From NCBI GenBank assembly GCA_963796105.1, contig CAWCKJ010000002.1:64001-128000 (forward strand): a stretch of 64,000 nt of DNA, in the 5' to 3' direction. The position numbers were made by a program, and so were the translations under genes. Source of the DNA: a candidate division FCPU426 bacterium. Its GTDB lineage: Bacteria; Oederibacteriota; Muellerivitia; Muellerivitales; Muellerivitaceae. Below, piece by piece: positions 133 to 57,263 of the stretch (position 1 is the stretch's first letter; every line of letters begins with the position of its first letter). A model generated the notes under the pieces. The model had not been told where the DNA came from, searched no databases, and worked only from the letters and a program-made list of their open reading frames with translations.

Positions 133-207
133 TGCCGAACATCTATAAAAATATCTTGAGATCAGTACTGTACCAGCCTCCTTCAACTTCTTTATGGTGG
201 GCTGGCA
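133..207 (+). repeat. ~75-bp double-hairpin unit, flanked by CG/CG
   Basis: TGCCGA..TCAGTA-ctg-TACCAGCC..GGCTGGCA; removal restores atccgtggc. Confidence 0.9.
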
Positions 208-279
208 CGTGGCAAAATAACTTTTTGAATTTAACTGTGTCTCTGTGTGGTGCGAAGCACCGCTGTGGTGAATACGTTT

Positions 280-3200
280 TTAATGAATTACGGCTATCTT
301 GCCGCTGAAAGTTTGGCTCCCCGCCTGGATCTTGTAAATATAGAGCCCCGCCGCTATTGGCGCCCCGGACTGGTTTCTTAGGTTCCAAGTCAGCGTATTC
401 AATCCCGGTTGTCCCAGGAAGCTTACGGAATAAACCAGCTCGCCCGTGAGGTTGTAGAGGTTCAATTGGACCGGCGTGGCTCCTGTGAGCGTGAGGCGGA
501 ATTGGATGGGCGTCCCGTCCTGGGAAATATTCGGCCAAGCGGCGGCGGAGTTAGAAATGAGGAATGAGGAGTTAGGGGTGGGAGACAAGGTATAAGTAGG
601 AGTTAGGAGTGGGGAGTTAGGAGTTAATGTCAAAGTCGGGGTGGCTGTGTTGTAAGGTGTCGCGGTGTAAGAGGGCGTAGCTGAAGGCGAAGCGGTGAGG
701 GACGCCGTAGGCGTCATCGAATCCGTCGAGGTGGGCGTGGAAGTGGATGTGCTTGTGGATGTGGGGGTAGGCGTAAAGGTGCAGGTCGAAGTGGGGGGCG
801 CTGGGGTGCAGGTGGAAGTGGGTGTTGGGGAAGGGGTAGGGGTGGGTTCCAGCCTGACGCCGAAAACCACGTTCATGATCCTGCCGCCCGTGGGGGCGGA
901 GGTGAACTCGTCCACTTCCTTGTTCCCGCAGTCCACCACGAACAGGTTCCCAGTGGGGTCGTAGGCCAGACAGCTCGGGTTATAGAAATTCGTGACACCC
1001 GCCCCGTCGATCTCGCCCAGGTAGCCTCCCTGGTTCGCGGCGTAAACAACCCGGTTGTTATCCCAGTCGGTGATGAATAGATTTCCCTGCTTGTCCGTCA
1101 CGATCCCGCCGCTGTAGCTACCGAGAGCTTTGGGCCATCCTGTCCCGTTGAAGGAATTAACGAGGGTATAGGATGAGTTGTATTCGGCGATGGAGACGCC
1201 GGAGTTGTTGAGGTAATAGTCCACGAAGTAGTTGCCGTTCCCGTCGAGGGCCACGTCCTCGCAGTAATTGGTGCTCGAGGCGGGGATGATGTTCGATCCG
1301 CTGTCATCCGCCCAGGCCAGGGACCAGATTCCGTTGTCATCGGCCACCAGCAGGTTCCCATTGGGGTCGATCCTGACGCTGTTGTCCAGCACGCAATTTC
1401 CAAGTCCTGTCCAGGTGTAGTCGTAAACCGCCGAGCTGGCGCCGAGTTTGTAGCCCACCACGCCTGTCCCGTACTCGGGGATGTAAAGCTCGTCGCTGGA
1501 ATCAATGGCCAGGCTTCCGGTGTATCCGCCGGTGGTGGGGATGGTATAGAGCAGGGTCTGCCCGGTGATGTCGTACACGTACACGTTGGAGTCCGCGTCG
1601 CCGTCGTCCACCACGAGGAAACTCACCCCGTCGGAGGCCACGCTCCAGGGGTTGGTGGTGCCAGCCGGGCTGAAAACGTTGGGCACGTAACTGGTGGTCA
1701 GGTTCCAAGAGCCGATGGGGATGGTGGTCTGAGTGGAAGTGACGGTGGGCGTGAAGGAGGATTGCGCTATGGCCGTCTGGGTCTCCTGCGCCTGGTAAGT
1801 GGCGGTGGGGGCGGTGGTTCCGGTCATGTTGGGGGTAGGGGTATTTGTTTTGGTGAGAGTGGGCGTGAGCGTGTTCGTGGGTGTGTTGGTCACGGACGGG
1901 GTGTAGGAATAAGTATAGGTATAGGTAAAGGTATTGGTGTAAGTAGGAGTAGCAGTGGGGGTATTGGTGGGTGTGTTCGTCGGTGTCGCGGTTTTGGTGG
2001 GAGACAAAGTAATAGTGGGGGTGCTAGTTGGGGAAGGCGTCGGGGTGGCCGTCGGGTTGCAGTTGGCCGCGTAAAACTCAACCGCCAAAATGTCTGAAAT
2101 GGAAGCGCCGCTTAAAACGCAGGTCACAGGGTAGCTGTTGATTGCCGTTGCGGTACGGTAGTTTCCCTCGGTGGAAAAGCCGGTATTGGAAAACGACCAT
2201 TCCGGGGTTTCCCCGGTTCCGGTCAAGGTAAAGGTCCTGCTGTTATAGACGTTGAATAATCCCACCACGATGGAGTTTTGCTGGCTTGTGGAAAAGGGCA
2301 TGGATGGATTTGCCGTTGAGGCAAGAACCGTCGAGGCGGAGTTGCCGAGGGGAGCGATTGGGTCCATCCCCGTGAAAACCATGGCGCCGATATCCATGGT
2401 TTGGGCGGCGGAAGCCGTGATCACGATGTTCCGGGACGCGCCGAGACCGGTCATTTGGGAACTGGGCAGGTAAAAGATGAAATTCTCGTGGCCGTTTGCG
2501 GTATCCGTGACACCCAAGGCGGGCACCAGGTTGACATTGTTGTAAGTGGCGGTGTTGATGGTGGCGGTAGTGTTTTTTATGGAGACTTGGACCACCAGGA
2601 GGGGGTTGGTTACTGGGGTGGCGATATTCAAGGCGAGAGTGTAGGTGTTGACGCTCCCGGGGAACGCGCTGGTCACGGTGGAGAAAGCGGATTGGCAGGT
2701 GACATAAGCCGTGTCCGTGGGTGTCTGGGTGGGAGTGGATGTATTCGTGGATGTCGGGGTATTGGTAGGCGTGGAAGTTTTCGTCGGGGTTAGGGTGATG
2801 GTGGGCGTGGCTGTTTTGGTGGGGGTAAGAGTGATGGTGGGCGTGGAGGTATTCGTGGAAGTGATAGTCGGCGTCGAGGTTTTGGTCGGCGTGGGAGTGA
2901 TGGTGGGTGTGTTGGTGATCGTGGGCGTCGAGGTCCAGGACGGCACGAAACCCACGCAGGAGTTGGCGTAAACCTGGTAGCTAAGTGTGCTCGCCGCGCC
3001 AGCTGTCCCGTTGGCCGTGAAGGGGTCCTGCATGCCATTATAGGGCCCGCCCGAGATGCCCTCGGAGTAGCTGGTTCCTGATCCGGTGCAGGCGACCGTG
3101 CCCGTGGTGCCGGTCACGTAAAACGCGAGCCAGTAGCTTCCGGCCGGAAGGGCAGTCGCGGGAACCGGCAGGGTATTCAATCCGGCGGTCACGGCAGTCT

Positions 3201-4293
3201 GCTGGGTTTGCACGAGAAGCCTTCCAGGGGTGTTGCCGGTGACGTTGGCGTAGATCCCCAGGATGGCCGAGACCGGTGCGGTCGCGGCGGTCATGCTGAT
3301 GGCCATGGAAGTGACGGTGGCCCCGTTGGAGAAACTGTAAAGGGAGCCAGCCTGCGTGTTGATCCCATTGGCGCTAGGGGTCGTGCCGGGAACAGCCGGA
3401 CCCGTGGTTTGGACCCAGGTGCAGACGGGAGTGGCTGTGGCGGTGGCGCAAGCCCCGGTGTAGGAGATCCACTGCTGGTTGCTCGACCCGCCGGTGGCGG
3501 CGGTGAATCCGTAATAGACCATGGTCTGGTTCTGGAAGACGCTTCCCACGAGGTCTCGGTTGTAAACCATGGTGCGGGCCGTGCCGCCCGCGTCCACGAT
3601 CGTGAAGGACAAAATCTTGTTCACCGCGTCCCAGGTCACGGTGACTGGATCGACCCCGCCGTTCAGGATCGTGGCGGGGAACACGTAGGGACAGCCGGTG
3701 ACTGAGGCGCTGGGTGTGACGTAGGGGCAGACGGCCGCGGTGGTCACGCCGTTCTCGAAAACTTCCAGTTGCCCCGTTTTGAAGGTTGTGTCGTAAGTGT
3801 TGATGGCGAAAGCCACCGAGGGAGAGACGGGGTTGGTGCCGGAGTAGCCCAGGCAGGCCCCGCAGGGTCCGCCGTTTCCGCTGAGGGCCGAGAGCCCGTT
3901 CTGGTCTTTCTGCAGGACGAAAGCGATCCCGTCGGCTCCACCCGCCGCGCCCAGGCTGGCGTTGTAGGTCTGGGTGAAGCCTTGGCTGAGGTCAATCTGC
4001 GTGGAGTTCCAGCAGGCCCCGCTTTGGCTCGCCACGTTTTGGGTGAGATAGACGGTCGTGCCGATGCTGGTGGCGTCCCCAACCAGGTTCCAATTGGGAC
4101 AGACTTGGGCGGAAGAGAAAGAGGAAGAGAACAAAATAATGAAGAATGAATAATGGGCAATGGACAATAAGGACAAACGACGAAGAAGAACGGGGAATGA
4201 AAGGCAACGGCGAAGAAAAGCAGGGCGATGGAAAACGGACAATCGGGACGATTGGTGACGAGAAAGTTTTTTCCTGCCCGGCGACAAAAACAT
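280..4293 (-). CDS. Large secreted multidomain protein: L-type lectin-like N-domain, Thr/Pro linkers, NHL-like beta-propeller, C-terminal FlgD/Ig-like domain
   Basis: 1337 aa [13 protein letters not shown] and [10 protein letters not shown] lectin motifs; TPTxTPT tracts; C-terminal [10 protein letters not shown]...[23 protein letters not shown]; true start uncertain. Confidence 0.8.
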
Positions 4294-39552: not shown

Positions 39553-39790
39553 GCGGTTTTTAACCTATTTGATGTTTTAACTGTGTCTCTGTGTTGTGCG
39601 AAGCACAACTGTGGTGAAACGTTGAAGTTGTTTGTTTTGCTGTTGTTTTCATTTTCCATTGTCCATTTTTCATTATGTCCACTTGTGTCCCTGAAAGTTT
39701 GCGCGTCAACCTGTTTTGGGCGGGTCTTGTGCTATACTGCCCCGCGCTTGATGTGGATTTCCGTAATTAAATAAATGGGGAGCGGATACG

Positions 39791-40036
39791 ATGAGTTTCC
39801 AACAAAAACGCGTCTATTCCTTTTGGCGCAACAGGATCAGGGCCGCCAAGGGCATGGATGCCTTGAACGAGATAGTCAACGGCCTTAACCGGCAATTGAA
39901 CCGGATCATCCAGAACAACGCGGACAAGGGTTTATCCGAACAGACCATTATCGAGCTGTGGGACCTATTGAAGAAAAAAAGAAGAAGTTATTTGGCGCGG
40001 ACCGAGTTCTTCAGGTGCGGGAATTTTTCGGTCTAA
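39791..40036 (+). CDS. Small hypothetical helical protein
   Basis: 81 aa, GGGGAG RBS. Confidence 0.5.
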   Translation: MSFQQKRVYSFWRNRIRAAKGMDALNEIVNGLNRQLNRIIQNNADKGLSEQTIIELWDLLKKKRRSYLARTEFFRCGNFSV

Positions 40037-40248: not shown

Positions 40249-40324
40249 TGCCAATCTTCCATAAAGATTAAATGGAGATTGGTACGATACCGATCTCCTT
40301 ATTAATTTATTTGGAGGGTCGGCA
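40249..40324 (+). repeat. ~75-bp double-hairpin unit, flanked by TG/TG
   Basis: Interrupts ctgtgtctctg|tgtggtgcgaagcaccgctgtggtgaa, which is intact at 231-272. Confidence 0.92.
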
Positions 40325-40360: not shown

Positions 40361-43300
40361 TTAATGAATAACCGCGACTTTCCCGCTGAAAATTCGTGAT
40401 CCCGCTTGAACCCTATAGATGTAAACCCCCGTCGCGACAGGTGTCCCGGAGTTGTTCCGTAGGTCCCATTCCATCTCGTTCAAGCCCGGGTTTCCGGAGA
40501 TATCTGCGGAATAGACCAACTCACCCACAATGGAATAAATGGCAAGCTTAATGGGTGTCGATTGGCCCGTGAGCATCACCCTGAATTGGATGGGTGTCCC
40601 ATCCTGGGAAATGTTCGGCCATGCCGCGGCTGAATCAGAAGTGGGGAGCGGGGGAGTGGGGTTGGGAGTGGGTGTCAGGGTCATGGCCGGGGTGGGCGTG
40701 GGTTTGGAGCCAAGGACCACGTTCATGATCTTATCCGCCGTGCCGGGTTTATATTCTTCCACGACGGTGGTGCCGCAATCCACCGCGTACAAGTCCCCGG
40801 CGGGATCGAACGAAAGACAGCTGGGGTTGCGAAAATCCAGGACACCTCCGTCTATTTCCCCCGAGTAGGCCCCGGTGTTCGAGGCGTAAACCACCCGGTT
40901 GTTGTCCCAGTCGGAAATGAATAGGTTATTGTTGGAATCCACCACGATCCCGGCGCTGTAGGTCCCCAGGACCTGGGCCCAGCCGGTGCCGTTGAATGAG
41001 CCCTGCGAAACGTATGAGGAATTGTAAGAGGTGATGGAGGTTCCCGGCTCGAGGTAGTTGTCCACATAGAAGTTGCCGCTGGAGTCCATCGCCGCGTCCT
41101 GCGGGTAAACCCCCGGGCCCGCCGGGATGATATTCGATCCGGTCCCATCGACCCATTTCAAAAGCCAAACGCCGGTGTCGTCGGCGATCACCAATCGCTC
41201 GTTCATCCCGCTTCCATTAATCCTTACACTATTGGGTAATACGCAGTCTTCCTCACCGTTCCAAGTGTAATCGCTAACGGCCCCGCTGGGACCCAGGATA
41301 TAACCCACCACCCCCGTGCCGTACTCGGGAACATAAAGCTCGCCATCTGTATCCAGCGCCATATTGCCGAGATAACCCCCGTTAGTGGTGATGGTATAGA
41401 GTGAATTGCCATTGATGTCGTAAACGAAGATATCACCGTTCGCGTCCCCGTCATTCACCGCGATGTAATAAGCCCCGTCGGTCGTCACGCTCCAGGGGTT
41501 GATGTCCCCGTCGAACCCGGAGGGGACGTAATCGGCCGTCAGGTTCCAGCCGGCCAGTTGCTGGGGGGGCGTCGGCGTAGGGGTGAGGGTGTTGACGGTC
41601 ATGGACGTGTACCAGACGTCGTTTAAGGCCGTTGAACCGGTGTACCCGCCCAGGGTCCACATCCTGTTGTTGAAAACAACGGCGCTATTGGAATCCCTCG
41701 GCGGGAAAGCGGCCGAGGCGTTGACCTCGTTCCATTGGTTCCCGTCCGTGGAATTCCAGACGTCGTTTGAAGGCGTACCCCAGTCCTGCCCGCCGATCAA
41801 CCACATGGCGCCGTTATAAACGAGGGATGGAAATGAGTCCTTTTTTCCGAACGCGGAAATTTGGGAGACTTGGGTCCAACTGACCCCGTTGGAGGAGGAC
41901 CAAACATCCTCGAAACCCTGGCCCCCGGCTACCCACATTTTTCCGGCGTAAACAAACGCGGAGGCGAAAGCCCTGGCGGCAAAATTGGCGCTGGCGGTGG
42001 CCTCGGTCCAGTTGACGCCGTCTGGGGAATACCAAACATCATTCAGAAAACCGCTGAGGCCCCACCCTCCGATCACCCACATCTTGCCCGTCGCGGTCCC
42101 GTCCGCGGGATTGTAAACCACCCCGCAATGGCCGAACCTGGCGGGAAAGGCTGCGTTGGTAGTGGCGGACGACCAATTGGCGCCGTCCGGGGAATACCAA
42201 ACGTCTTTCTGGCAGGTAGCGTTTGCTAACCCGCCGATCACCCACATTTTGCCGGTCGCGGTCCCGTCGGCTGGGTTGAAAACCTCGGAGGTATGATCGG
42301 CCCTGGGGCTGAACGCGGCGTTGGTAGTGGCGGCCGACCAGTTGGTCCCGTCCGGGGAATACCAGGCGTCGTTCATCGCGTTGCCTGAATTGCCCCCGCC
42401 GCCGATCACCCACATCTCGCCCGTCTGGGTCCCGTCGGAGGGGTTGTAAACCACCGAGCTATGGCCGTTCCTGGCGGGGAAGGCGGCGTTGAGCGTGGCC
42501 GGGCTCCAGCAGTAGCCCGTGATGGAAGAGGAGCAGGTGGGCGTAGAGGTCGGAGTGGAGGTGGGGGTGTTGGTTGGGGTGTAAGTGTAAGAAAAGGTAT
42601 AAGTAGGTGTGGGTGTCCAGGTAAAGGTCGGGGTGGGAGTCAAGGTAGGGGTCGGGGGCAGGGCGTTTGAATGCCAAACGTCGTTCAGGTAGGGAGTGGT
42701 TAGGTTTCCATCCCAGCCGCCCAGGACCCACATGGCCGGTCCGGACCCATTGTCGAACGTCACTCCGCTCATGCCGGCGCGCGGGGGGAAAGGCGCCGAG
42801 GAGGTAGCCTCTGTCCAGTTGGCCCCGTCGCCGGAGCTCCAGACGTCGTTGTTCTCGGGGCTTGATAGTCCGGTTCCGCCTATGACCCACATTAAACCGT
42901 TATAAACCATGCAAGCGTCGCTGTACCTGAACCCGAAGCCTGGAGAGGAGGTGGCCAGGGTCCAATGGACGCCGTCGGTAGTTGACCATACGTCGCTGGT
43001 GGCCGCGCTTCCCCCGATGACCCACAGCCTTCCACCGTAAACCAGGGCCGAGGCCCAGGATCTCGGGGTGAACGGCGCGTTGGCGGTGGCCTGCGTCCAG
43101 TTGGCGCCGTCGCTGGAGTACCAGACGTCGTTCGCGAAACCGTTTGCCGTGTAGCCCCCGATGATCCACATTTTTCCCGAGGCGGTCCCGTTGACCGGGT
43201 TGAAAACGGCGCTGCACATGCCCCAGCGGCCGGAAAAGGCGGCGTTGGGGGTGGCGGGGTTCCAGTTGATGCCGTCGGTGGAGTACCAGGCATCGTTGGC

Positions 43301-44455
43301 ATAGGCCCCGGAAGAAAGTTGCCCCCCGATCACCCACATCCTGCCCGTCGCGGTCCCGTTTGAGGGGTTGAAAACCACCGAGGCGTGGCCCACCCGGGGG
43401 GAGAAGGCCGCGTTGGCGGTGGCGGGAATCCAGATATCTCCATTCGAGGAATAATAAACGTCATTTAAAAAAGAGGGGGCCGTGCCGTATTGTCCGCCGA
43501 TCACCCACATCTTGCCCGTTTGGGTCCCGTTGGCGGGGTTGAAAACCACCGAGCTATGTCCGGTCCTGGTCCGGAAGGCCGCGTTGGCCGTGGACTCGGT
43601 CCAGCAGGAGCCCAGGACGGACGTGGAACAGGTGGGCGTGTTGGTGATTATGGGGGTAGGGGTTGGCGTATTGGTGCTGGTTGTGTCATTGTCAGAGAGA
43701 ATCTCGATGCCCTGGTAGTCGGCCGTATTAGCTGAGCTTAACGCATAGGTCGGGAAATAGGTTCCGGGTGACGGGGCGGGCATTTCGTCGCCTTCGCTCA
43801 CCTTAGGCATCGGTTGTGCCCATCTTCTGGTTTGTCCCGTGCCCGCCACGATGCTGACCGTGGGATTGGTATTGCCCTGCATGCACATGGAAGCGATGAG
43901 GCTATTGTAGTAGAGGGTGTTGTCCGTAAAGGTCTGGGTCGTATTCGCGGGATTTGAGTAAAAAGTAGTCGCGCCATAAGGGGTGGTTTGGTTCACGTAT
44001 TGGTAGCAAAGAACAGCCATATCCAGGTATGCGCTTGCGCTGATAATGACCGTCACGGTATTGGTACCAACCGCGGGATTGACCAGGTACCAGGTTTCCA
44101 TGGAATCGCCATTGGGCGGGTCAGAATCCCTTCGGATCAAGCTGAAGGGAGTTGTGTTATAAGTCGCGGAAGTGACTGAAACGGCCGAATCGAAGATGGC
44201 GACCTGCAGGAGCAAAAGGGTATCGGTTCCGCTGGGGGATATGTTGGCCCGAAAAGTTGCGGCCTCGGTAGTCCCAGTTCCACCTTCGGTTACGTAAGCA
44301 GGTGAGGTTTGGGCCTGGAGGGAAAAGGGAAGGGACAAAAACAAAATGAATAATGCGAAATGGATCAACAGGAATGGGGAATGAAAAAAATCATTCCGCT
44401 TAAGCAAGGGAACGGTCAATCGGCTCATACAACCTCGCTGTATCTTCATAAACAT
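40361..44455 (-). CDS. Large secreted protein with two Kelch-like repeat blocks, NHL-like propeller, Thr/Pro linkers and C-terminal FlgD/Ig-like domain
   Basis: Repeated MWVIGG...NDVWYS.DG.NW...T.NAAF.PR units; C-terminal region paralogous to 280-4293; start may be 44428. Confidence 0.85.
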   Translation of the reverse strand: MFMKIQRGCMSRLTVPLLKRNDFFHSPFLLIHFALFILFLSLPFSLQAQTSPAYVTEGGTGTTEAATFRANISPSGTDTLLLLQVAIFDSAVSVTSATYNTTPFSLIRRDSDPPNGDSMETWYLVNPAVGTNTVTVIISASAYLDMAVLCYQYVNQTTPYGATTFYSNPANTTQTFTDNTLYYNSLIASMCMQGNTNPTVSIVAGTGQTRRWAQPMPKVSEGDEMPAPSPGTYFPTYALSSANTADYQGIEILSDNDTTSTNTPTPTPIITNTPTCSTSVLGSCWTESTANAAFRTRTGHSSVVFNPANGTQTGKMWVIGGQYGTAPSFLNDVYYSSNGDIWIPATANAAFSPRVGHASVVFNPSNGTATGRMWVIGGQLSSGAYANDAWYSTDGINWNPATPNAAFSGRWGMCSAVFNPVNGTASGKMWIIGGYTANGFANDVWYSSDGANWTQATANAPFTPRSWASALVYGGRLWVIGGSAATSDVWSTTDGVHWTLATSSPGFGFRYSDACMVYNGLMWVIGGTGLSSPENNDVWSSGDGANWTEATSSAPFPPRAGMSGVTFDNGSGPAMWVLGGWDGNLTTPYLNDVWHSNALPPTPTLTPTPTFTWTPTPTYTFSYTYTPTNTPTSTPTSTPTCSSSITGYCWSPATLNAAFPARNGHSSVVYNPSDGTQTGEMWVIGGGGNSGNAMNDAWYSPDGTNWSAATTNAAFSPRADHTSEVFNPADGTATGKMWVIGGLANATCQKDVWYSPDGANWSSATTNAAFPARFGHCGVVYNPADGTATGKMWVIGGWGLSGFLNDVWYSPDGVNWTEATASANFAARAFASAFVYAGKMWVAGGQGFEDVWSSSNGVSWTQVSQISAFGKKDSFPSLVYNGAMWLIGGQDWGTPSNDVWNSTDGNQWNEVNASAAFPPRDSNSAVVFNNRMWTLGGYTGSTALNDVWYTSMTVNTLTPTPTPPQQLAGWNLTADYVPSGFDGDINPWSVTTDGAYYIAVNDGDANGDIFVYDINGNSLYTITTNGGYLGNMALDTDGELYVPEYGTGVVGYILGPSGAVSDYTWNGEEDCVLPNSVRINGSGMNERLVIADDTGVWLLKWVDGTGSNIIPAGPGVYPQDAAMDSSGNFYVDNYLEPGTSITSYNSSYVSQGSFNGTGWAQVLGTYSAGIVVDSNNNLFISDWDNNRVVYASNTGAYSGEIDGGVLDFRNPSCLSFDPAGDLYAVDCGTTVVEEYKPGTADKIMNVVLGSKPTPTPAMTLTPTPNPTPPLPTSDSAAAWPNISQDGTPIQFRVMLTGQSTPIKLAIYSIVGELVYSADISGNPGLNEMEWDLRNNSGTPVATGVYIYRVQAGSRIFSGKVAVIH

Positions 44456-44930: not shown

Positions 44931-47114
44931 TTAGTGGAATGCCACGATGCGGTAGTTGTACTTGTCCAAAACGTAGAAGGTGCCGGCCCCGTCCGTGGCG
45001 ACGTCGCTGATCCCGGTGGCCAGATTACCCGACCCGAATTGGCCGGTCACGGTCCCGGAAGGATTGAATTCCCAGACCATGGCGTTGTTGTTGTCCGAGG
45101 CGTAAACGTTGCCGGAGGGGTCCGTCGTGACGCCGGTGGGGTAAAAGCCGGGGGAAAGTCCAGGTATCGTGAGGGTGTTGAGATGGGTCCCGGTCGGGCT
45201 GAATTCCATGACGCCAAAACCATTATTAGCCCCCCAAATATTGTTGCCGGCGTCCATGGCCAGGTTATAGGAGCCCCCGCAGAAGAGGCAGGTATAGGCG
45301 GTGAGGGCGGTATAGGTGGTTCCGCTGATGGAATAGGAGATGAATTCGGCGTAATAAGGGACTGAAACGTAAAGGGTCGTTCCCGCGTCGTTGACGGCCA
45401 AGCCCGCTGAGTATTTAGTGAGGGCGAAAGAGGCCAGGTAGGCGCCGGACGGGTTGAAGACAACCCCCAGGTTGTTGCCGCCGTCCACGACGTAAATGTT
45501 GCCGGTCGTGGGGTCCAGCCCCACGCCCTGCGGCGAGTAAAAGGTGCTGCCTCCGTTGTAGGTGGTGATGGTCGTCACGGGGCTGGTGCCGTTCGTCGCC
45601 CATTCCTGGAGGTTGTTGTTGTACTCATCAGAGACCCAGAGGTGGCCGTTCGTGTATTGGATCCCGTAGAGGCCGTTAAAATAGGAGCCGGACCCGAGGG
45701 TGGCGAAGGCGCTGAGGGAATTGGTGGGCGTGCTCGTGGCGGTATTGGTGGCGGTCGGGGTCGGGGTGAAGGTCGGGGACGGCGTGGGGGAGCCGGTGGG
45801 CGTATTGGTCGGGGTGGGGGTGCTGGTGGGGGTCGGGGTGGAAGTGGCGGTGAAAGTCGCGGTCGGCACCAGGACCGAGTGGGTGTTTCCGTTGATGGGC
45901 CCGCCGATAACCGTCGCGGGGGTTCCCGTTTGCGCGCCCACTGCCGAAATCGTTTCCGCGCTGACAGAGTTGTCAAAGGACGCGTTCCCGGAGGCATCCA
46001 GGCTGAAAACCAGAAGCAGGGTCTGCGGTGTTCCTGGCGAAACCTCCAAAAGGCCCCCGGCTTTGGTGAAAGTCACGGCGCCGCTGGTGAAGGTTCCCCA
46101 GGCCAGGGCGGTCCCGCCGCCCGTGTACAAACCGTTCGCGCCGGAGTCATCCCCGCTTGCGCCGGTATCCTGGTACAAGCTCACGCTGTTGGCTGTCACA
46201 TCCGCGCCGGTCAAAGAGCCCTCCAGGCCGAAGGCGATCTGATTTATCGAGACAGGCTCCTGGCCGAGAACCTTCAAGACGACCTGGATTCCCGTCACAT
46301 CCGCCTGGCTGGTGAGGTAGTTTTGGGACGCCGGATCGCCGTTCCAGGCAAGGATCAGCTTGGGCTGGGGCGTGGGAGTCACGGTGGGAGTTTCAGTGGG
46401 TGTAGGCGTCTGGGTCGGCGAGTCGGTGGATGTGGGGGTGGAAGTATTCGTAATGGTATTTGTCCAGGTGGGCGTTGGCGTCATCGAATCCGTGGGAGTC
46501 CAAGTAGGAGTTAGGAATGTGGAGGTAGGAGTTGTTGAAGGGGTGTAGGTCAGGGTGCCGGGAGGGAAAGTCGGCGAGTAGGTCGGGGTTTCCAGGATCG
46601 TCACGGGCGTGTCCGTAAAAGTCAAAGTAGGAGTTAGGAACGTGGAGGTAGGAGTTGTAGTAGGCGTGTAGGTCAGGGTGCCGGGCGGGAAAGTCGGCGT
46701 ATAGGTTTCAGTCACCAATACGGTCACGGGAGTGTCCGTAGAAGTCAAAGTAGGAGTCAGGAATGTGGGAGTAGGAGTTTCGGAAGGCGTGGCTGTCAGG
46801 GTGCCGGGCGGGAAGGTGCGGGTGTAGGTCGGTGTTTCCAGGATGGTCACGGGGGTGTCGGTCGGCACGGGAGTGTCCGTGGAAGTCAAAGTAGGAGTCA
46901 GGAATGTTGAAGTTGGGGTCGCGGAAGGCGTGGCAGTCAAGGTGCCGGGGGGAAAGGTGGGGGAGGGGGTGGCTGTCACGAGGATGGTGACAGGCTGGGT
47001 GACTGTGACGGGGGAGGAGGGCCCGGCGGTATTGTTCGAGCATCCGGTGGGGAACAGCGATAAAAAGGACGAAAGAACCAAGACGCAGCATGGAATATAA
47101 ATGGAACGGCTCAT
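44931..47114 (-). CDS. Thr/Pro-rich lipoprotein with C-terminal NHL-like beta-propeller
   Basis: Lipobox-like LFPTGC; four TFPPGTLT...TFLTPT repeats; PTGVTTDPSGNVYASD. Confidence 0.82.
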   Translation of the reverse strand: MSRSIYIPCCVLVLSSFLSLFPTGCSNNTAGPSSPVTVTQPVTILVTATPSPTFPPGTLTATPSATPTSTFLTPTLTSTDTPVPTDTPVTILETPTYTRTFPPGTLTATPSETPTPTFLTPTLTSTDTPVTVLVTETYTPTFPPGTLTYTPTTTPTSTFLTPTLTFTDTPVTILETPTYSPTFPPGTLTYTPSTTPTSTFLTPTWTPTDSMTPTPTWTNTITNTSTPTSTDSPTQTPTPTETPTVTPTPQPKLILAWNGDPASQNYLTSQADVTGIQVVLKVLGQEPVSINQIAFGLEGSLTGADVTANSVSLYQDTGASGDDSGANGLYTGGGTALAWGTFTSGAVTFTKAGGLLEVSPGTPQTLLLVFSLDASGNASFDNSVSAETISAVGAQTGTPATVIGGPINGNTHSVLVPTATFTATSTPTPTSTPTPTNTPTGSPTPSPTFTPTPTATNTATSTPTNSLSAFATLGSGSYFNGLYGIQYTNGHLWVSDEYNNNLQEWATNGTSPVTTITTYNGGSTFYSPQGVGLDPTTGNIYVVDGGNNLGVVFNPSGAYLASFALTKYSAGLAVNDAGTTLYVSVPYYAEFISYSISGTTYTALTAYTCLFCGGSYNLAMDAGNNIWGANNGFGVMEFSPTGTHLNTLTIPGLSPGFYPTGVTTDPSGNVYASDNNNAMVWEFNPSGTVTGQFGSGNLATGISDVATDGAGTFYVLDKYNYRIVAFH

Positions 47115-48808: not shown

Positions 48809-49346
48809 TGTGCCAATCTTCCATAAAGATTAAATGGAGATTGGTACGATACCAGCCACCCTATTAGTTTTATGGAGGGCTGGCATGTGCCAATCTTCCA
48901 TAAAGATTAAATGGAGATTGGTACGATACCAGCCACCCTATTAGTTTTATGGAGGGCTGGCATGTGCCAATCTTCCATTAAGCATATGTGGAGATTGGTA
49001 CGATACCAGCCACCTATTAGTTTTATGGAGGGCTGGCATGTGCCAATCTTCCATTAAGCATATGTGGAGATTGGTACGATACCAGCCACCTATTAGTTTT
49101 ATGGAGGGCTGGCATGTGCCAATCTTCCATAAAGATTAAATGGAGATTGGTACGATACCAGCCACCCTATTAGTTTTATGGAGGGCTGGCATGTGCCAAT
49201 CTTCCATTAAGCATATGTGGAGATTGGTACGATACCAGCCACCTATTAGTTTTATGGAGGGCTGGCATGTGCCAATCTTCCATTAAGCATATGTGGAGAT
49301 TGGTACGATACCAGCCACCTATTAGTTTTATGGAGGGCTGGCATGT
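48809..49346 (+). repeat. Tandem array of 7 double-hairpin units (77/76-bp variants, order A A B B A B B)
   Basis: Unit starts 48809, 48886, 48963, 49039, 49115, 49192, 49268. Confidence 0.97.
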
Positions 49347-49375: not shown

Positions 49376-50212
49376 TTACTCCAAGTTGAGAATAGGTTTT
49401 CCGGCGATTGGTTTGAGTGACTTTAAAGCCTCGAACTCCTCAGGCGGCATGTAGCCGATAGAAGAATGCAACCGTTTTTTGTTATACACCTCCTCGATGA
49501 AGTATGGAAGTCTTTGAAGCACTTCCTGATAAGTTTCGTAATTGAATAGATGCACCTCCTCATATTTCAAGGTTTTGAAAAAGGATTCCGCATTTGCATT
49601 GTCGTAAGGGTTGCCTGTCCTGGACATGCTGATCCTTAATCCTTTGGACTCAAGCAGGGCCACGTAATCCCAGCAGGCATATTGCACCCCTCTGTCTGAA
49701 TGGTGGATGCATCCCGGAAGAGGATTCCTTTCCTCTAAAGCCATGCGTAAAGCCGAAAGCGACAACTCCCGATCCAGTCTCTTGGAAACCGCCCACCCGA
49801 TCACCTTTCTGGAAAAACGATCCAGAATGGCCGCCAGATAAACAAAGCAAGTGAGGATTCGGATATAGGTAATATCCGCCACCCACACTTGATTGACAGC
49901 AGTTTCTGCCACCCTTTCCAAGAGGTTGGGGAACACCGGCAGGTCGTGATTGGATTGGGTGGTTTGGATCTTGAACCTTTTCCCCCAAATAATAGGGTAA
50001 AGACCGTATTTCCTTACCACCCGCCGAATCCGTTTGGCGTTAATCCTTAATCCCTCCCGTAAAAAGTGGTGGTAGAGCCTCCGATAGCCGTAGTAGGGGA
50101 AGGTCAATCTCACCTGCTCGATTCGGTTCTTTAAGTCCAAATCTCTTTGTTCCTGAATCTCCGGTTCACTTTTAAGTGCAGAATAATAGGTACTTCGAGG
50201 AAGCCCCATCAT
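49376..50212 (-). CDS. IS3-family transposase OrfB (DDE integrase core)
   Basis: WVADITYI, HHSDRGVQY, DNANAESFFKTLK. Confidence 0.95.
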   Translation of the reverse strand: MMGLPRSTYYSALKSEPEIQEQRDLDLKNRIEQVRLTFPYYGYRRLYHHFLREGLRINAKRIRRVVRKYGLYPIIWGKRFKIQTTQSNHDLPVFPNLLERVAETAVNQVWVADITYIRILTCFVYLAAILDRFSRKVIGWAVSKRLDRELSLSALRMALEERNPLPGCIHHSDRGVQYACWDYVALLESKGLRISMSRTGNPYDNANAESFFKTLKYEEVHLFNYETYQEVLQRLPYFIEEVYNKKRLHSSIGYMPPEEFEALKSLKPIAGKPILNLE

Positions 50213-50556
50213 TTGGCATCCTCTTGAAATTGAGCCAAATTCCTTGAGGTGATCACGGAGGTATCGAGCTTTCTCTGGTTTTCCGCGTATTTTTGGAATT
50301 TTTTTAAAAGGTCTATCGCCATGATCAATTCCCCAATCTTGGCTTTGAGTTTCTCATTCTCTTTTTCCAAGGCTTTTTCACGGGGGGAAGGCTTTTCAAC
50401 CAGTGATCCTTGGCGAAATTTATCCCGCCAATTCTTTATGACGCTAGGGTCGATTTGATATTGGCGTGCGGCCCCATTAATGGACTGGCCAGACTCTATT
50501 TCCCGAACAACCTGTTGTTTGAAATCAACACTGAATTTTCGTCGTATTTTACCCAT
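50209..50556 (-). CDS. IS3-family transposase OrfA (HTH)
   Basis: RRKFSVDFKQQVV, coiled-coil tail, ATGA overlap with orfB. Confidence 0.92.
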   Translation of the reverse strand: MGKIRRKFSVDFKQQVVREIESGQSINGAARQYQIDPSVIKNWRDKFRQGSLVEKPSPREKALEKENEKLKAKIGELIMAIDLLKKFQKYAENQRKLDTSVITSRNLAQFQEDAK

Positions 50557-50737
50557 CTGGAAACGCTCCTTTGGGGGGCTACCCCTTGAGCCGTTTCCCT
50601 ATTCTCTATTTTTTGCTTCAACTGTCCAACCTAAGGGCGCATACCACCCTCTCATAGTTGAAAAGAAGGTGGTGGCTCCTCTGCCCAGACTGTAAAGTCT
50701 GGGTGACCAATTTTTTTAAAAAAGAGAGGAAACCACC

Positions 50738-52006
50738 ATGAAAAAGTTACACCGTAGTGCCTTGAAAGGCGACAAGAATCTTTGGCAGATGCCGCTCAGC
50801 CCGGAAGATCGGGTGGCAATGATTCAGGACGGGCTTAACAGCTTGGCTTACCAGTTAGGGGTGATGGCGGCCCAAGAGTTTTTGCAGGCTGAAATCAAAG
50901 ACTTTTGTGGTCCCCGATACCAACGCCAGCCGGAACGGTCGATCAGCCGTTGGGGAAGTCAAGGCGGAACCGTGGTTTTAGCGGGCCGAAAAGTGCCCAT
51001 CCTCAAGCCCCGGGCTCGGATGAAAGACGGCCGTGAGATCGTTTTAGAAACCTACCAGAAACTCCAAAATCCCGAAGCCATACCTGAAAGCGCCCTTCGG
51101 CATATGGTTCGAGGGGTTTCCTGCCGGGAGTACGAAGGTTGCCTGGAACCGTTGGCCAAAGGCTTTGGGATGAAGCGCTCTTGCGTGAGTCGAGGGTTCG
51201 TAAAGGCCTCGGCGAAACAGATGAAATTACTTGCGGAAAGGCGTTTTGAGGGCCAAGAGTTTCTGGCGGTATTCATCGACGGAGTGCCCTATGGGGGCGA
51301 GATGATGGTAGTAGCCCTGGGAGTGAAAGGCGGAAAAGACGCTGGAAAGAAAGTTATTTTGGGGCTTCGTCAAGGGGCCACGGAGAACGCCCAGGTCTGT
51401 AGCGACCTGCTGACGGACTTGAGGGACCGGGGTCTTTCCTTTGGAAATCCGATGTTGTTCATACTGGATGGGTCCAAGGCTCTGACGGCAGCCGTGAAAC
51501 GGCTTTGTGGGGAAAAAGCGAAAATCCAACGTTGTCAGCAGCACAAAATCCGAAACGTGCTGGGCTATGTGACTAAAAAACATCAAGACGAAATCCGCGA
51601 TCGCATGGCCGAAGCTTACGCCTGCCAGGATTGGCGAGAAGGGGAGAAACGCCTGAATACCCTGGCCGCCTGGCTGACGCGGATTAACCCAGATGCCGCC
51701 GCCAGCCTGAGGGAAGGCCTTGAAGAAACTCTGACGGTGGTCAAACTGGGCCTCCCTGCGGTGTTGGCGAAAAGCTTAGTGACGACGAACCCCATCGAGT
51801 CGGCATTCAGTGTGGCGGGCAAGGTGACCGGGAGGGTGAAACGGTGGCGAGGTGGAGACATGCGCCGACGCTGGTTAACGGCGGGCCTGATGCGGGCCGA
51901 AGAGGCTTTCAGACGCCTGAAGGGATACAGGGAAATTCCAATCTTACAGGCGGCTTTGAGGAGGTGTACGGCGAACGACGTTGACGGGGAAACAGCTGCG
52001 GCTTAA
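50738..52006 (+). CDS. IS256-family (Mutator-like) transposase
   Basis: RGVSCR, VFIDG, ILDGSKAL, QRCQQHK, TTNPIES. Confidence 0.93.
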   Translation: MKKLHRSALKGDKNLWQMPLSPEDRVAMIQDGLNSLAYQLGVMAAQEFLQAEIKDFCGPRYQRQPERSISRWGSQGGTVVLAGRKVPILKPRARMKDGREIVLETYQKLQNPEAIPESALRHMVRGVSCREYEGCLEPLAKGFGMKRSCVSRGFVKASAKQMKLLAERRFEGQEFLAVFIDGVPYGGEMMVVALGVKGGKDAGKKVILGLRQGATENAQVCSDLLTDLRDRGLSFGNPMLFILDGSKALTAAVKRLCGEKAKIQRCQQHKIRNVLGYVTKKHQDEIRDRMAEAYACQDWREGEKRLNTLAAWLTRINPDAAASLREGLEETLTVVKLGLPAVLAKSLVTTNPIESAFSVAGKVTGRVKRWRGGDMRRRWLTAGLMRAEEAFRRLKGYREIPILQAALRRCTANDVDGETAAA

Positions 52007-52056: not shown

Positions 52057-52295
52057 CGCCGATTTTCCATAAATCAGTTAATGAAATCGGTGCTATACCG
52101 AACTTTCCTTTTAAGCCTTATGGTGGTTTAGCATGAGTTCCTGTGCCAATCTTCCTTTAAGCATATGTGGAGATTGGTACGATACCAGCCCCCTATTAGT
52201 TTTATGGAGGGCTGGCATGTGCCAATCTTCCATAAAGATTAAATGGAGATTGGTACGATACCAGCCACCCTATTAGTTTTATGGAGGGCTGGCAT
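52057..52295 (+). repeat. Three further double-hairpin units right of IS256
   Basis: Divergent copy 52057-52133, then B-type and A-type copies from 52142. Confidence 0.9.
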
Positions 52296-52534
52296 GTGGT
52301 TAGATGTTGAAGTTATTGGTTTTGATGGTTTTAGCCGTACCCCAAAGAATGCCTTACCGTGTTCTCTGTGGTTTCGAAGAAACCCGTGGTGAGAAATTGT
52401 TGCTTTCAATTCATAATTTAAAATTCAAAACTTAAAATTCGCTCTTTTGCGCTCTGTGGTGAGAAGGTCGTTGCCTTCGATTCATAATTCAACACTCAAA
52501 ATTTAGAATTGTCCGCGGTTGATGGGTTTTTCCG

Positions 52535-53746
52535 TCAGGAAATTAAATGGGTGATGGGAACGGCCCAGAGGTTCTTGCCCAGGGGAAGGGTTTCCCGCCC
52601 TGTGGTGGCGAGTATCCCCATAGCGGGCCCCGCCTGGGCTTTCAGGAAGGCCTCCAATCCCCTCAGGTCATCCTTCCTGGGGCGGGAACCCCATTTGACC
52701 TCTACCGCCAGGGTTCTTTGACCCGATTCCAGGATGAAATCCACTTCGTGACGGCCTTGGATGTTCCAGTAAAAACCCCCGGCATCCGGTAAAACGGCCT
52801 CGGATAAGGCCAGCAAATTCTGCGCGACCCAATTCTCAAGGAGGGCGCCTTTCAAGGGATGATCCCCCTGGGACGCGCTCATACCGGTCAAATGGGCGGC
52901 CAAACCGGAGTCGGTGAAGTAGAGCTTTGAGGATTTCACGAGGCGGCTGGTTGGGTTTCCAAGGTACGGCGGCAGGCGGCGGATCAGGAAGGATGTTTCC
53001 AGGAGGGAAATGTACCGGGACAGGGTCATCACATTCATCTTCGCGTCCCGCGCCAGGTCGGAGAGGCTCAGGATACCGCCGGTTCTCAGCGCCGCCAGCC
53101 TCATCAACCTGCGGAACCCGGCCAGGTCGCCCACCTGGCTCAAGTCCCTTAAATCCCTCTCCAAATAGGTTTGGACATATCCCTGGAACCAAATCCCGGG
53201 TTTTTTGACCTCACCCAGGATGACACTCGGCATCCCGCCCCTGAGGACAGTCTCAAAGTCGAAGGCCTCGGCCTTGCCTTCCGGGGGGATCCCTTGAAGC
53301 AGGCTTCCCAATACAGGGGGGAAGGATGTCCTTTTCCGCGCCTCGCGGGCGGTAAAGGGCTGGAGTTCCATGTAAACCGCCCTTCCAGCCAGGCTTTCGG
53401 AGACGCTTTTCAGGAGCCGGAGGTTAGCCGACCCGCTCAGCAGGAATTGCCCGGGACGGCGGTGACGGTCCACCGCGCGTTTGACCGCCAAAAGAATTTC
53501 GGGAAACCGCTGGACCTCGTCCAAGGTGAGGGGGCCGCCCTCCAGGAAGGTTTCCGGGTCCCGTTGGGCGGCATCCAGGGTGGCAAAATCGTCGAAAGAG
53601 GCGTAACGCCGTTTCTTGAAGGCGGGATCAAGTTGGAGGAGCGTGCTTTTGCCGGCCTGGCGCGGCCCTGTCAGCGCCACGACAGGCATGTTCTCCAGGG
53701 CCTCCAGTAAACGGGGGGTGATCTCACGGGGATGGTAGTTAGTCAT
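52535..53746 (-). CDS. AAA_14 ATPase with DUF4143 and C-terminal restriction-endonuclease-like motif
   Basis: GPRQAGKST, LDEVQR, LLSGS, KLYFTDSGL, EVDFIL, AVEVK. Confidence 0.92.
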   Translation of the reverse strand: MTNYHPREITPRLLEALENMPVVALTGPRQAGKSTLLQLDPAFKKRRYASFDDFATLDAAQRDPETFLEGGPLTLDEVQRFPEILLAVKRAVDRHRRPGQFLLSGSANLRLLKSVSESLAGRAVYMELQPFTAREARKRTSFPPVLGSLLQGIPPEGKAEAFDFETVLRGGMPSVILGEVKKPGIWFQGYVQTYLERDLRDLSQVGDLAGFRRLMRLAALRTGGILSLSDLARDAKMNVMTLSRYISLLETSFLIRRLPPYLGNPTSRLVKSSKLYFTDSGLAAHLTGMSASQGDHPLKGALLENWVAQNLLALSEAVLPDAGGFYWNIQGRHEVDFILESGQRTLAVEVKWGSRPRKDDLRGLEAFLKAQAGPAMGILATTGRETLPLGKNLWAVPITHLIS

Positions 53747-54949: not shown

Positions 54950-55056
54950 GAATTATCCAATTGACACCCTTTACCGGGTCGCTATTGCCCTGGAATGCAG
55001 CGTACCTGATCTTCTTATAAGTCCCACCACGTTATGGCCCTTTACGGGGAGACTTT

Positions 55057-55267
55057 CCAAGCAGCCAAAAACCCCCAAATAGGGTTAAGTGAATTGATTC
55101 GCTGATTTCGTGTTGTTTCCTGAAATTCATAATTCAAAATTTAAAATTGATTTTCCGGGTCGTCCTTCCAAACAGCCAAAACCCACCAAAACAGGGTTAA
55201 GTGAATTGATTCGCTGATTCCGTGTGTTTTCCTGAAATTTAAAATTCAAAATTTAGAATTCAAAATT
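55057..55267 (+). repeat. Imperfect direct duplication (~110 bp) ending in AATTCAA/AATTTAA heptamer runs
   Basis: agggttaagtgaattgattcgctgatt occurs twice. Confidence 0.8.
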
Positions 55268-56047: not shown

Positions 56048-56169
56048 GTTAATACCTCCAGGGGATACCCCCCCCAATGTGATTGTTTAGAAGTCTATTA
56101 TCTCTTTTCCACATGGTTGCTTCAAGTCGGGTATAAAATGCTGATTTTTCAACAAATCCCCTGAATCCG

Positions 56170-56244
56170 TGCCGATCATCTATAAAAATATATTGAGATC
56201 GGTACTGTACCAGCCACCATCAACTGCCTTATGGCAGGCTGGCA
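56170..56244 (+). repeat. ~75-bp double-hairpin unit, flanked by CG/CG
   Basis: Close relative of 133-207. Confidence 0.9.
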
Positions 56245-56341
56245 CGTGGCAAAATGAGGTGATGTGTTTTTGTTTTAACTGTGTACTTTGTGGTTTCGAA
56301 GAAACCCGTGGTGAAAAGTAGTTGTTGTTGCTGAGTCTCTG

Positions 56342-57263
56342 CGCCGATTCACCAAAAAGCAGTAAATGAAATCGGTGCGATACCAGCCACATTATTAGTT
56401 TTATGGAGGGCTGGCATGCGCCGATTCACCAAAAAGCAGTAAATGAAATCGGTGCGATACCAGCCACATTATTAGTTTTATGGAGGGCTGGCATGCGCCG
56501 ATTCACCATAAAGCAGTTAAGGGAATCGGTGCTATACAGGCCGCATGAGGCTGCCAGCCGAGTGCGACGGTTGCCAGCGCATGCCAGCCTTCCATAAGGC
56601 TGTTATGGGGGCTGGTATTGCACTGATCTCAAAATCCTTTTATGGTTGATCAGCGCATGCCAGCCTTCCATAAGGCTGTTATGGGGGCTGGTATTGCACT
56701 GATCTCAAAATCCTTTTATGGTTGATCAGCGCATGCCAGCCTTCCATAAGGCTGTTATGGGGGCTGGTATTGCACTGATCTCAAAATCCTTTTATGGTTG
56801 ATCAGCGCATGCCAGCCTTCCATAAGGCTGTTATGGGGGCTGGTATTGCACTGATCTCAAAATCCTTTTATGGTTGATCAGCGCATGCCAGCCTTCCATA
56901 AGGCTGTTATGGGGGCTGGTATTGCACTGATCTCAAAATCCTTTTATGGTTGATCAGCGCATGCCAGCCTTCCATAAGGCTGTTATGGGGGCTGGTATTG
57001 CACTGATCTCAAAATCCTTTTATGGTTGATCAGCGCATGCCAGCCTTCCATAAGGCTGTTATGGGGGCTGGTATTGCACTGATCTCAAAATCCTTTTATG
57101 GTTGATCAGCGCATGCCAGCCTTCCATAAGGCTGTTATGGGGGCTGGTATTGCACTGATCTCAAAATCCTTTTATGGTTGATCAGCGCAGATTTAATGTA
57201 AATCTGTACCGAACTTTCATTAAAAGTTTTATAGAGAAAATGGCTTTGCCATTTTAGTGGGCA
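56342..57263 (+). repeat. Three tandem double-hairpin units (77-bp period); the third contains the 62-bp element, which contains an inverted 8x76-bp array
   Basis: Unit starts 56342, 56419, 56496; third unit resumes at 57207. Confidence 0.85.
56581..57188 (-). repeat. Eight identical 76-bp tandem double-hairpin units
   Basis: Starts 56581, 56657, 56733, 56809, 56885, 56961, 57037, 57113. Confidence 0.97.

Follow-up and report, generated by a model that had tools for sequence, protein, structure and literature searches.

A double-hairpin repeat whose spacer is complementary to its flanking dinucleotide in genomes of an uncultured bacterial family

Introduction

We describe here a family of ~75-bp double-hairpin units in a 64,000-nt stretch of DNA (hereafter the window; positions 64,001–128,000 of contig CAWCKJ010000002.1 of GenBank assembly GCA_963796105.1, or C2:64001–128000) from an uncultured soil bacterium of candidate division FCPU426, whose genome comprises 4.98 Mb in 16 contigs. 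Each unit consists of two related ~36-nt hairpins, P and Q, which lie in inverted orientation with a 3-nt spacer between them, and most units stand between two copies of one dinucleotide. The central finding is that spacer positions 1 and 3 show Watson-Crick complementarity to this dinucleotide in 103 of the 105 unique equal-flank units of this genome, a relation that is new here and that an earlier note on the window, made from its letters, had missed. We propose that the unit is a non-autonomous element of the repetitive extragenic palindrome (REP)/bacterial interspersed mosaic element (BIME) kind, moved as single-stranded DNA by a Y1 enzyme of the HUH class acting in trans, with the spacer as guide. 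We put the probability of this reading at roughly 0.58.

Results

Spacer and flanks

Read with the P hairpin (that with the AGCC or GACC box) first, 136 of the 146 full-length copies in the genome carry an equal dinucleotide on both sides (CA in 120, CG in 13, TA in 3), and in 10 the two sides differ. These classes correspond to TG, CG, and TA in the orientation of the earlier note, whose rule of identical flanking dinucleotides holds for these 136 copies, although its list did not include the TA class. Each class has its own spacer: CA goes with T-n-G in 89 unique units (TCG 46, TAG 24, TTG 15, TGG 4), CG with C-n-G in 11, and TA with T-n-A in 3, the two exceptions being CA with TCA and CG with ATG. 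In an alignment of 115 distinct units with 4-nt flanks (A1; 15 units from the window and 100 from 53 other regions), the flank–spacer pairs read AU 98 and GC 13 for columns 4–68 and CG 108 and UA 3 for columns 3–70, with 98.7% of cells paired. The CG class belongs mostly to one subfamily in a single host motif (motif C, below), and it is found as well beside another unit (window position 37675) and in an unrelated context (C4:1537198).

The same relation is found in other genomes of the family. Of 64 distinct units from 13 such genomes, equal flanks are found in 60, every one of which obeys the spacer rule; 58 are CA/TnG, one, from the same-genus genome, is CG/CnG, and one, from another genus and another context, is TA/TnA. 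The model used to search for these foreign units contains the flank columns, which biases these hits slightly toward CA. The match of spacer to flanks suggests that the element itself would pick the site at which it is cut and pasted, and the middle TAG, TCG, or TTG can stand in for positions 2–4 of the GTAG tag of classical REPs.

Anatomy and covariation of the two hairpins

The profile consensus of the unit is TGCC-AGCC-TTCCAT..loop..GGAG-GCT-GGTA / TCG / TACC-GATC-TC..loop..GGAAGATC-GGCA. Its halves are inverted relatives yet distinguishable, the P hairpin having an AGCC, GACC, or GAAC box between the feet TGCC and GGTA and the Q hairpin a GATC, AATC, or GATT box between the feet TACC and GGCA. 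Because only ~20 weak solo hairpins occur outside doublets in the genome, none of them bracketing a gene, we take the doublet to be the unit that spreads. No GTAG or CGTC tag is found at a hairpin foot, where the tag-like position reads A+TCG, A+TAG, or A+TTG.

RNAalifold on a MAFFT alignment gave only 4 pairs, and a two-hairpin structure of our own was used instead. On A1, this structure leaves 83.9% of cells paired, with changes on both sides in 218 cells as compared with 89.7 in shuffled alignments. Its covariation score of 0.239 exceeds the 0.154 of the shuffles, none of which reaches it (0/500), and drops to 0.05–0.07 when the partners are slid by 1–3 columns. Both-sided changes are found in seven pairs of each main stem, as in P-stem pairs 9–63 (AU 74, GC 36), 10–62 (GC 66, AU 40), and 11–61 (CG 96, AU 9, UA 2) and Q-stem pairs 71–118 (UA 95, CG 12), 75–114 (GC 85, AU 28), and 78–111 (CG 71, UA 35). 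Each stem has a conserved irregularity at its second pair, which is G.T in 100 of 114 P stems and A.C in the Q stem, where the pair is non-standard in 87 of 115. The structure of the stems, beyond their sequence alone, is under selection, and the covariation reported in the earlier note is upheld.

Folding both strands of three window copies as DNA also gave two hairpins (minimum free energy -11.6 to -15.8 kcal/mol, z -3.5 to -4.8), the first of which is lengthened by the flank–spacer pair. A cloverleaf pairing of the outer TGCC with GGCA and of the inner GGTA with TACC was tried and rejected; these segments are conserved and show no covariation (0.099 versus 0.097, a score reached by 133 of 500 shuffles).

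Occupied and empty sites

Many flanks are themselves repeats, which the earlier note had missed. Three host motifs recur: A, CCCATG-CA-TCYGTGGCTAAAG; B, TTCACCA-CA-GRGACTCAGAGAC; and C, TTTGCCA-CG-GATTCAGGGGAT. Under strict patterns, 22 occupied sites are of type A, 7 of type B, and 9 of type C, while a neighboring unit directly adjoins 39 copies, and 69 are in contexts of other kinds. Uninterrupted paralogous motifs number 23 (A), 22 (B), and 22 (C); the dinucleotide is single each time, and a doubled dinucleotide without insert occurs in none of the three (0/0/0). Empty sites thus exist as paralogs, and since they hold the dinucleotide once, the insert amounts to the 74–76-bp unit plus one dinucleotide. 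The earlier note had called this a duplication. The equal flanks are there, but they need not be a duplication, since an element that carries one dinucleotide and inserts beside an identical one gives the same pattern.

When 30 occupied and 39 empty flanks of type A are placed on a maximum-likelihood tree, 19 changes of state are needed to account for the occupied ones, against a shuffled mean of 22.5. Between 36 and 38 of 500 shuffles need as few as 19, and the well-supported branches of this tree, which is built from few columns and has many open forks, require at least 3 of the changes. Such interspersed occupied and empty flanks argue against a single insertion that was then copied with the host repeat. 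Identical units also stand in different left contexts 38 kb apart (C2:116144 and C2:154046), and different unit subfamilies are found at the same host site. For an orthologous comparison, the same-genus genome (G001) offers gene identities of only 70–83% and broken synteny, with the homolog of the neighboring gene in a different context; metagenome relatives of the neighboring 579-aa protein (11 loci) are at most 73% identical, and a strain-level allele search with window 30001–40000 had no sequencing run listed.

The host repeat is an imperfect palindrome of ~180–290 bp (window 21742–22035, also 33530–33750 and 1–132) with a left arm TTGCCACGGATTCAGGGGATGCA and a right arm ATCCCATG.ATCCCATGCATCTGTGGCTAAAG, and units insert in either of these arms, at a single CA or CG of fixed position. 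Dozens of copies are present in this genome and in the same-genus genome (75–90% identity). We leave as speculation a resemblance of TTCACCACA, TTTGCCACG, and TTAGCCACA in the host motifs to the DnaA box, given as TT[AT]TNCACA in PMC6006769. These words occur 141, 71, and 30 times against 37, 39, and 37 expected; only TTCACCACA is clearly over-represented, and the insertion point varies between motifs.

Copies in the window and genome

A loose architecture pattern with a stem filter yielded 95 units genome-wide, the alignment of which held 65 different sequences that were used for a profile. The 277 nhmmer hits of this profile collapse to 190 non-overlapping places, 146–147 of them full-length, with 70 places on C4, 60 on C2, 23 on C3, 11 on C6, and fewer on the remaining contigs. 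The window has 33 non-overlapping matches (29 full-length and 4 partial; Table 1) where ~2.4 per 64 kb would be expected from the genome mean, an excess that is mostly due to its arrays. The earlier note had listed about 32 copies, and every coordinate it named was recovered. It had also thought the family perhaps undescribed: no catalogued Rfam family reaches its gathering score in the window, and literature searches, which were word-based rather than sequence-based and may have passed over an earlier description, returned none.

The units flank ordinary genes and also occur among insertion sequence (IS) elements. The earlier note had said that they never lie inside intact genes; with each unit cluster removed, open frames of at least 150 aa span 17 of 161 unit sites, as compared with 813 of 1000 random positions. 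In being short intergenic palindromes of high copy number that form inverted pairs and tandem clusters, the units resemble REPs and BIMEs.

Table 1. Double-hairpin units of the window and the neighboring Y1 gene element. Flanks are read with the P hairpin first.
Position in window	Strand	Feature
133–207	-	Solitary unit, CG/CG flanks, spacer CAG, inserted in host motif C
21923–21997	+	Solitary unit, CA/CA, spacer TCG, host motif A (right arm of host repeat 21742–22035)
30491–30564	+	Solitary unit, CA/CA, spacer TCG, host motif A
33751–33845 (matches 33751/33778)	+	Unit in host motif A, first hairpin degenerate, interrupted by 19-nt palindrome AAAATGGCAAAGCCATTTT
34697–35703	+	TIRtron: Y1 (HUH) + DnaA_C gene 34747–35688, perfect 21-bp inverted repeat GGGGTCAGGTCTTCATTTTAT at 34697–34717 and 35683–35703
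35787–35860	-	Solitary unit, CA/CA, spacer TCG, 84 bp past the right inverted repeat of the TIRtron
37675–37827	-	Two abutting units joined by CG: 37675–37749 (spacer CTG) and 37752–37827 (degenerate)
37969–38042	-	Solitary unit, CA/CA, spacer TAG, host motif B (TTCACCA-CA-GGTTTC)
39371–39507 (matches 39371 + 39469)	-	Unit split at its spacer by 62-nt insert (CAGATTTA..TAAATCTG palindrome + CCCCGGCAACC..)
40249–40324	-	Solitary unit, CA/CA, spacer TCG, B-type motif
48811–49343	-	Tandem array of 7 units joined by single CA, variant order a a b b a b b
52057–52294	-	Three units: 52057–52133 divergent; 52144–52217 and 52220–52294 resemble the 48811 array
56170–56244	-	Solitary unit, CG/CG, spacer CAG, host motif C
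56342–56545	-	Two identical CA-joined units (56342–56416, 56419–56493) and half unit 56497–56545 running into 62-nt insert sequence
56582–57187	+	Tandem array of 8 identical 74-bp units joined by CA, at CA within the 62-nt insert of an older unit
57188–57263	+	Remainder of older split unit: CAGATTTAATGTAAATCTG palindrome, then TACC..GGCA hairpin carrying 19-nt palindrome

Arrays and nested inserts

Arrays of 7, 8, 8, and 3 copies are found in the genome, and tandem units are joined by exactly one dinucleotide. Tandem Repeats Finder (TRF) describes those of the window as period 76, 7.0 copies (48809–49346, with a higher-order period of 229 bp); period 77, 2.6 copies (56340–56537); and period 76, 8.1 copies with 100% matches (56575–57189). 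The variant order of the seven-copy array, taken with its 229-bp period, indicates that this array grew at least partly by block duplication.

Some units carry smaller inserts. A 62-nt sequence (CAGATTTA...TAAATCTG palindrome followed by CCCCGGCAACC..GCGGCCTG) lies in the spacer at window 39408–39470, at 56546–56581 together with 57188–57206, and at C2:158340–159010. The two 8-copy arrays of the genome both occupy one particular CA of this insert, and they differ from each other in unit sequence. The 19-nt palindrome AAAATGGCAAAGCCATTTT or its complement is found inside units at three places (window 33760–33778 and 57236–57254, and C6:183089–183183) and may be a still smaller nested mobile hairpin. 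Larger elements are present as well: an IS3 (orfA 50209–50556, orfB 49376–50212) and a Mutator/IS256-type transposase (50738–52006) separate the seven-copy array from the units at 52057–52294, and these two appear to have landed within a longer unit array (window 49376–52006). Another copy of this IS3 is flanked by two identical units, at C4:976340 and 978411.

Distribution in the family and phylum

A covariance model of the unit was scanned over 24 further genomes of the same family and over 16 that represent nine other families in the phylum, per-genome counts being taken among the best 111 scored candidates. The unit is present in 21 of the 24 family genomes, representing 14 of 17 genera, and in none of the 16 genomes from the other families. 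Two genera have a unit in the same intergenic place, next to homologous genes (L080:1501–1584 in G023 and L085:1501–1582 in G004), and in a third genus (L097 in G019) the same position holds a unit in the opposite orientation. A unit shared in this way at one intergenic place would be either an old retained copy or a sign of a recurrent target.

Candidate enzymes

The protein of the Y1 gene in Table 1 scores 44.2 bits against Y1_Tnp and 32.9 bits against Bac_DnaA_C, passes the NCBIfam model for REP-associated tyrosine transposases (RAYTs), NF047646, with 88.7 bits (cut-off 80), and resembles E. coli TnpA_REP (PDB 4ER8) N-terminally and DnaA domain IV C-terminally. The gene is one of at least 12 full-length paralogs (50–63% identity), each bracketed by its own inverted repeat starting GGGGTCAGG, which is unrelated to the units; the closest ortholog of the protein elsewhere is ~54% identical. 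A Y1 domain with a helix-turn-helix or DnaA_C tail between GGGGWSAS inverted repeats, as found here, is the TIRtron/TIRYT arrangement (consensus of the terminal inverted repeats, TIRs, as given in PMC3733652). The protein corresponds to subclass 2.1 in the classification of PMC6006769, and what that paper says of this subclass is that its genes have no REP-like sequences nearby and that their repeats are unlike DnaA boxes. The TIRYT paralogs are the only RAYT-like candidates found in the genome for acting on the units. The two IS200 copies (532 bp), the sole IS200 of the genome, have CCACGGGCTTGCCCGTGG hairpins unrelated to the unit.

The earlier note had tied the units to this RAYT, and that link is not supported: the gene has its own unrelated 21-bp ends, only 2 of the 12 paralogs are near units, and units and Y1 genes do not co-occur. 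No autonomous partner was found between nearby unit pairs, where the 32 frames at 12 loci encode ordinary proteins such as a PfkB kinase, YceG, and a PAPS reductase, or belong to other IS elements, and the hairpins or guides of the unit are not common with those of an autonomous IS200/IS605 element of the same genome, as would define a palindrome-associated transposable element (PATE). A search for IS91-type Y2 genes found none, which carries little weight since the control genomes were also without a hit.

The TIRtrons, at least 12 in number, include those at C3:193553–194567 and C4:1337784–1338798, and ~eight encode near-identical 318-aa copies. Several have a 31-nt hairpin insert (..CCACACGCTGCGGAGCGTGTGG..) in the right repeat, and truncated copies and a few solo repeats also exist.

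Other features of the window

A 43-bp tandem repeat (GATAACCCGCCGACAGTACCGTCGGCATGGGCCGGTAAGCTGA; 7.4 copies, 92% matches) lies at 63179–63495. AT-rich 14-nt tandem motifs (AATTCAAAATTTAA) and a 112-bp near-duplicate adjoin units and mobile genes at 35747–35781, 52408–52440, and 55055–55267. Genes for AAA_14 + DUF4143 ATPases lie near units three times (window 52535–53746, C4:423438–424631, and C4:1545725–1546891), a proximity that may merely reflect common "junk" regions. Very long minus-strand open frames at 280–4293, 40361–44455, and 44931–47114 contain internal coding repeats of 18–165 bp (TRF rows 2728–2934, 42064–42657, and 45747–46988) and probably encode repeat-rich surface proteins.

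Discussion

Proposed mechanism of movement

The earlier note had read the family as mobile, non-autonomous, and REP/BIME-like without the GTAG signature, and the empty sites, the interspersed occupied and empty flanks, and the stem covariation bear this out. Because pairing is selected within each half, because the stem irregularity is conserved, and because flanks and central trinucleotide follow a base-pair logic, we infer a single-strand chemistry, a guide role for the spacer, and an enzyme of the HUH class. We propose that a tyrosine HUH (Y1) enzyme, supplied in trans, would recognize the folded hairpins, including their irregular second pair (G.T or A.C), and would cut beside the dinucleotide XY at each hairpin foot. 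The spacer, Y'-n-X', would base-pair with XY and in this way choose the cut at the 3' end of the element and the target dinucleotide alike; a guide of this sort would leave each copy between identical dinucleotides and tandem copies joined by one. In the simplest scheme, the element would be P-spacer-Q-XY, inserted 3' of a target XY, with the spacer recognizing both. This scheme would give the direct repeat, the single-copy empty sites, the one XY between tandems, and the fixed orientation relative to the asymmetric CA. Together with the A of GGTA before it, the spacer of the predominant class places A-T-n-G at the 5' foot of Q, while the 3' foot of Q is adjoined by CA, and the unit offers such a hairpin-plus-guide module on both strands.

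Several observations weigh against this proposal. The non-CA classes are few and belong in part to one subfamily, such that independent support for a guide comes from about six contexts, and elsewhere the predominance of CA is such that one could count the dinucleotide as belonging to the element. In the seven-copy array, the order a a b b a b b favors block duplication over one-by-one insertion. There is no orientation bias with respect to GC skew (40 versus 43 units in skew-positive and 26 versus 20 in skew-negative regions; sign of the smoothed skew on five contigs, replication direction being taken from skew only). All Y1 genes of the genome have ends of their own, either GGGGTCAGG repeats or CCACGGGCTTGCCCGTGG hairpins; no gene in the genome is bracketed by solo unit hairpins in the manner of a REPtron; a unit lies within 200 bp of only 2 of the 12 full-length TIRYT genes; and no gene family recurs among the 131 open frames beside units at 61 loci in 13 genomes. 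At E ≤ 1e-5, the Y1 family PF01797 gave no hit in 7 of the 21 genomes with units (completeness: G004, 99%; G007, 85%; G018, 80%; G019, 99%; G020, 82%; G021, 98%; G023, 89%), and the three of these that are 99%, 99%, and 98% complete have 10, 28, and 41 unit matches among the matches listed. The 3 family genomes without units all have PF01797, as do other families in which the unit is missing. Multi-copy genes missing from fragmented assemblies, or units that outlive their enzyme, are possible reasons for the absences of Y1 genes, and neither is evidence. Given the unrelated Y1 ends, the lack of co-occurrence, and the absence of a recurrent neighboring gene, we assign no cognate enzyme.

A bolder version of the proposal names one. 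Here the units would be the missing repeat partners of the TIRYT class (subclass 2.1), moved in trans, and the spacer would be a reprogrammable two-base guide common to both hairpins, in which a single base change retargets the element from CA to CG or TA. We hold this version only tentatively and think it rather less than an even bet.

Relation to known systems

A close parallel is the E. coli BIME-2, made of y and z2 REPs, which likewise has two distinguishable inverted hairpins, a short linker, and tandems that are uniform within a locus (PMC3333891, PMC8266576). It is also intergenic and an IS target and requires stem irregularity, E. coli REPs being described as dependent on stem mismatches (PMC8266576), and its Y1 enzyme cuts at a dinucleotide beside the hairpin. 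TnpA_REP is reported to cut at CT or CA, 5' or 3' of the REP hairpin (PMC8266576), and its strand transfer can build tandems in vitro (PMC3333891). The unit differs in that it has no GTAG or CGTC tag, its tag-like position being A+TnG; in that its hairpins are longer (~36 nt) and abut with 3 nt between them; and in that CA, CG, or TA takes the place of CT as the presumed cut dinucleotide, immediately beside the foot of each hairpin. Moreover, no REPtron was found for the unit, and its host belongs to a candidate phylum.

Pseudomonas REPINs share with the unit an inverted doublet as the spreading form, hundreds of copies, and long vertical persistence, as described in PMC3116915. Whereas a REPIN doublet forms one long hairpin, the halves of the unit fold separately, P-box with P-box and Q-box with Q-box, and whereas REPIN RAYTs are single-copy and flanked by REPINs, the Y1 genes here are multi-copy, TIR-flanked, and patchy. 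The Marinomonas group 3 REPtron provides a close precedent for the spacer rule. In that system CA is chosen through cross-complementarity with T2 and G4 of GTAG, with one free base between, and base changes moved the cut predictably (PMC8266576). The rule was established there in vitro with mutants, whereas here it is read from natural covariation (CA/TnG, CG/CnG, TA/TnA), and the presumed guide of the unit is common to two hairpins. Elements of the IS200/IS605 family (IS608, ISDra2) and the PATEs, which derive from them and lack genes, also have subterminal hairpins, peel and paste a single strand without true duplication, and use guides beside the hairpins that pair with cleavage and target sites (PMC8266576). 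Their guides, in contrast, are 4 nt long, one per end and 5' of each hairpin, with targets of 4–5 nt, and their strong replication-linked orientation bias is absent at the units. TIRtrons and TIRYTs describe the candidate enzyme and not the unit, and in PMC6006769 they appear as a subclass without a REP-like partner. The unit works like a BIME or REPIN yet fails three classical features: the GTAG tag, a Y1 gene bracketed by REPs, and a single long doublet hairpin.

Alternative explanations

It is also conceivable, though we judge it unlikely, that the unit is in the main a structural or regulatory repeat that serves the host (as an mRNA 3'-end stabilizer, a protein-binding site, or a supercoiling target), kept by selection and spread largely through recombination and duplication of the larger repeats around it rather than through transposition of its own. 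The near-confinement to non-coding DNA, the unit found at the same intergenic place in two genera, and the persistence of the family in 21 of 24 genomes, with or without a detected Y1 gene, would all fit a host function, as would the growth of arrays by block duplication and the travel of many copies with host repeats A, B, and C. Spread with the host repeat sits poorly, however, with the interspersion of occupied and empty repeats (19 changes on the tree), with varied subfamilies at one host site and identical units in different contexts, and with an insert that is precise to the base and brings one additional dinucleotide. A host role is moreover compatible with transposition, REPs being credited with both in PMC3733652.

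Equal flanks and single-copy empty sites could have a different origin if the unit were a miniature inverted-repeat transposable element (MITE), mobilized in double-stranded form by a DDE transposase whose staggered 2-bp cut makes a true duplication; the terminal TG...CA would then be its ends and the hairpins would be incidental. We regard this as improbable. The units do start with TG and end with CA, their halves are mutually inverted copies, and their orientation is unbiased with respect to GC skew; IS3, Mutator-type, and IS1595 elements lie among the arrays, and the genome has one IS630-type gene. IS630 duplicates TA, and CA dominates at the units. A transposase that reads duplex ends would select their sequence and not the pairing within an arm, which leaves the compensatory changes within each half unexplained, along with the complementarity of the flanks to an internal spacer (103/105 and 60/60). 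Profile searches uncovered no longer element with unit ends, the solo hairpins being weak and ~20 in number, and gave zero hits on contig C14, home of the IS630-type gene.

The least probable alternative, which we give very little credence, is a circle-forming element exchanged by a serine-type recombinase at a 2-bp core that the target shares, with GGCA-XY-TGCC as crossover site: the identical dinucleotide at both junctions and the single one between tandem copies, the inverted repeat around a 2-bp center in ..GGCA-CA-TGCC.., the resemblance of the internal GGTA-n3-TACC junction to a second such site, and the two large serine recombinases encoded in the genome are all in its favor, but neither recombinase gene has a unit nearby, targets A, B, and C have no half-site likeness to the element ends, and both the covariation within each half and the extra middle base of the spacer go unexplained.

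Significance

If the unit moves as we propose, with a spacer that guides a Y1 enzyme, it would be a testable system of two hairpins, one 3-nt guide, and a 2-nt target. The choice of cut and insertion sites by REPs is otherwise known only from in vitro studies of a handful of enzymes from proteobacteria; here natural copies display the rule, in three flank classes each with its own spacer, across 14 genera of an uncultured phylum. These data raise the questions of whether element-encoded guides are general in the spread of REPs and BIMEs and whether the widespread TIRYT enzymes act on such repeats. Should the latter be true of this family, the unit would be the smallest known self-targeting DNA transposon, at 77 nt including the carried dinucleotide. 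For annotation, the unit explains much of the mosaic intergenic DNA and many of the tandem arrays in the genomes of this family.

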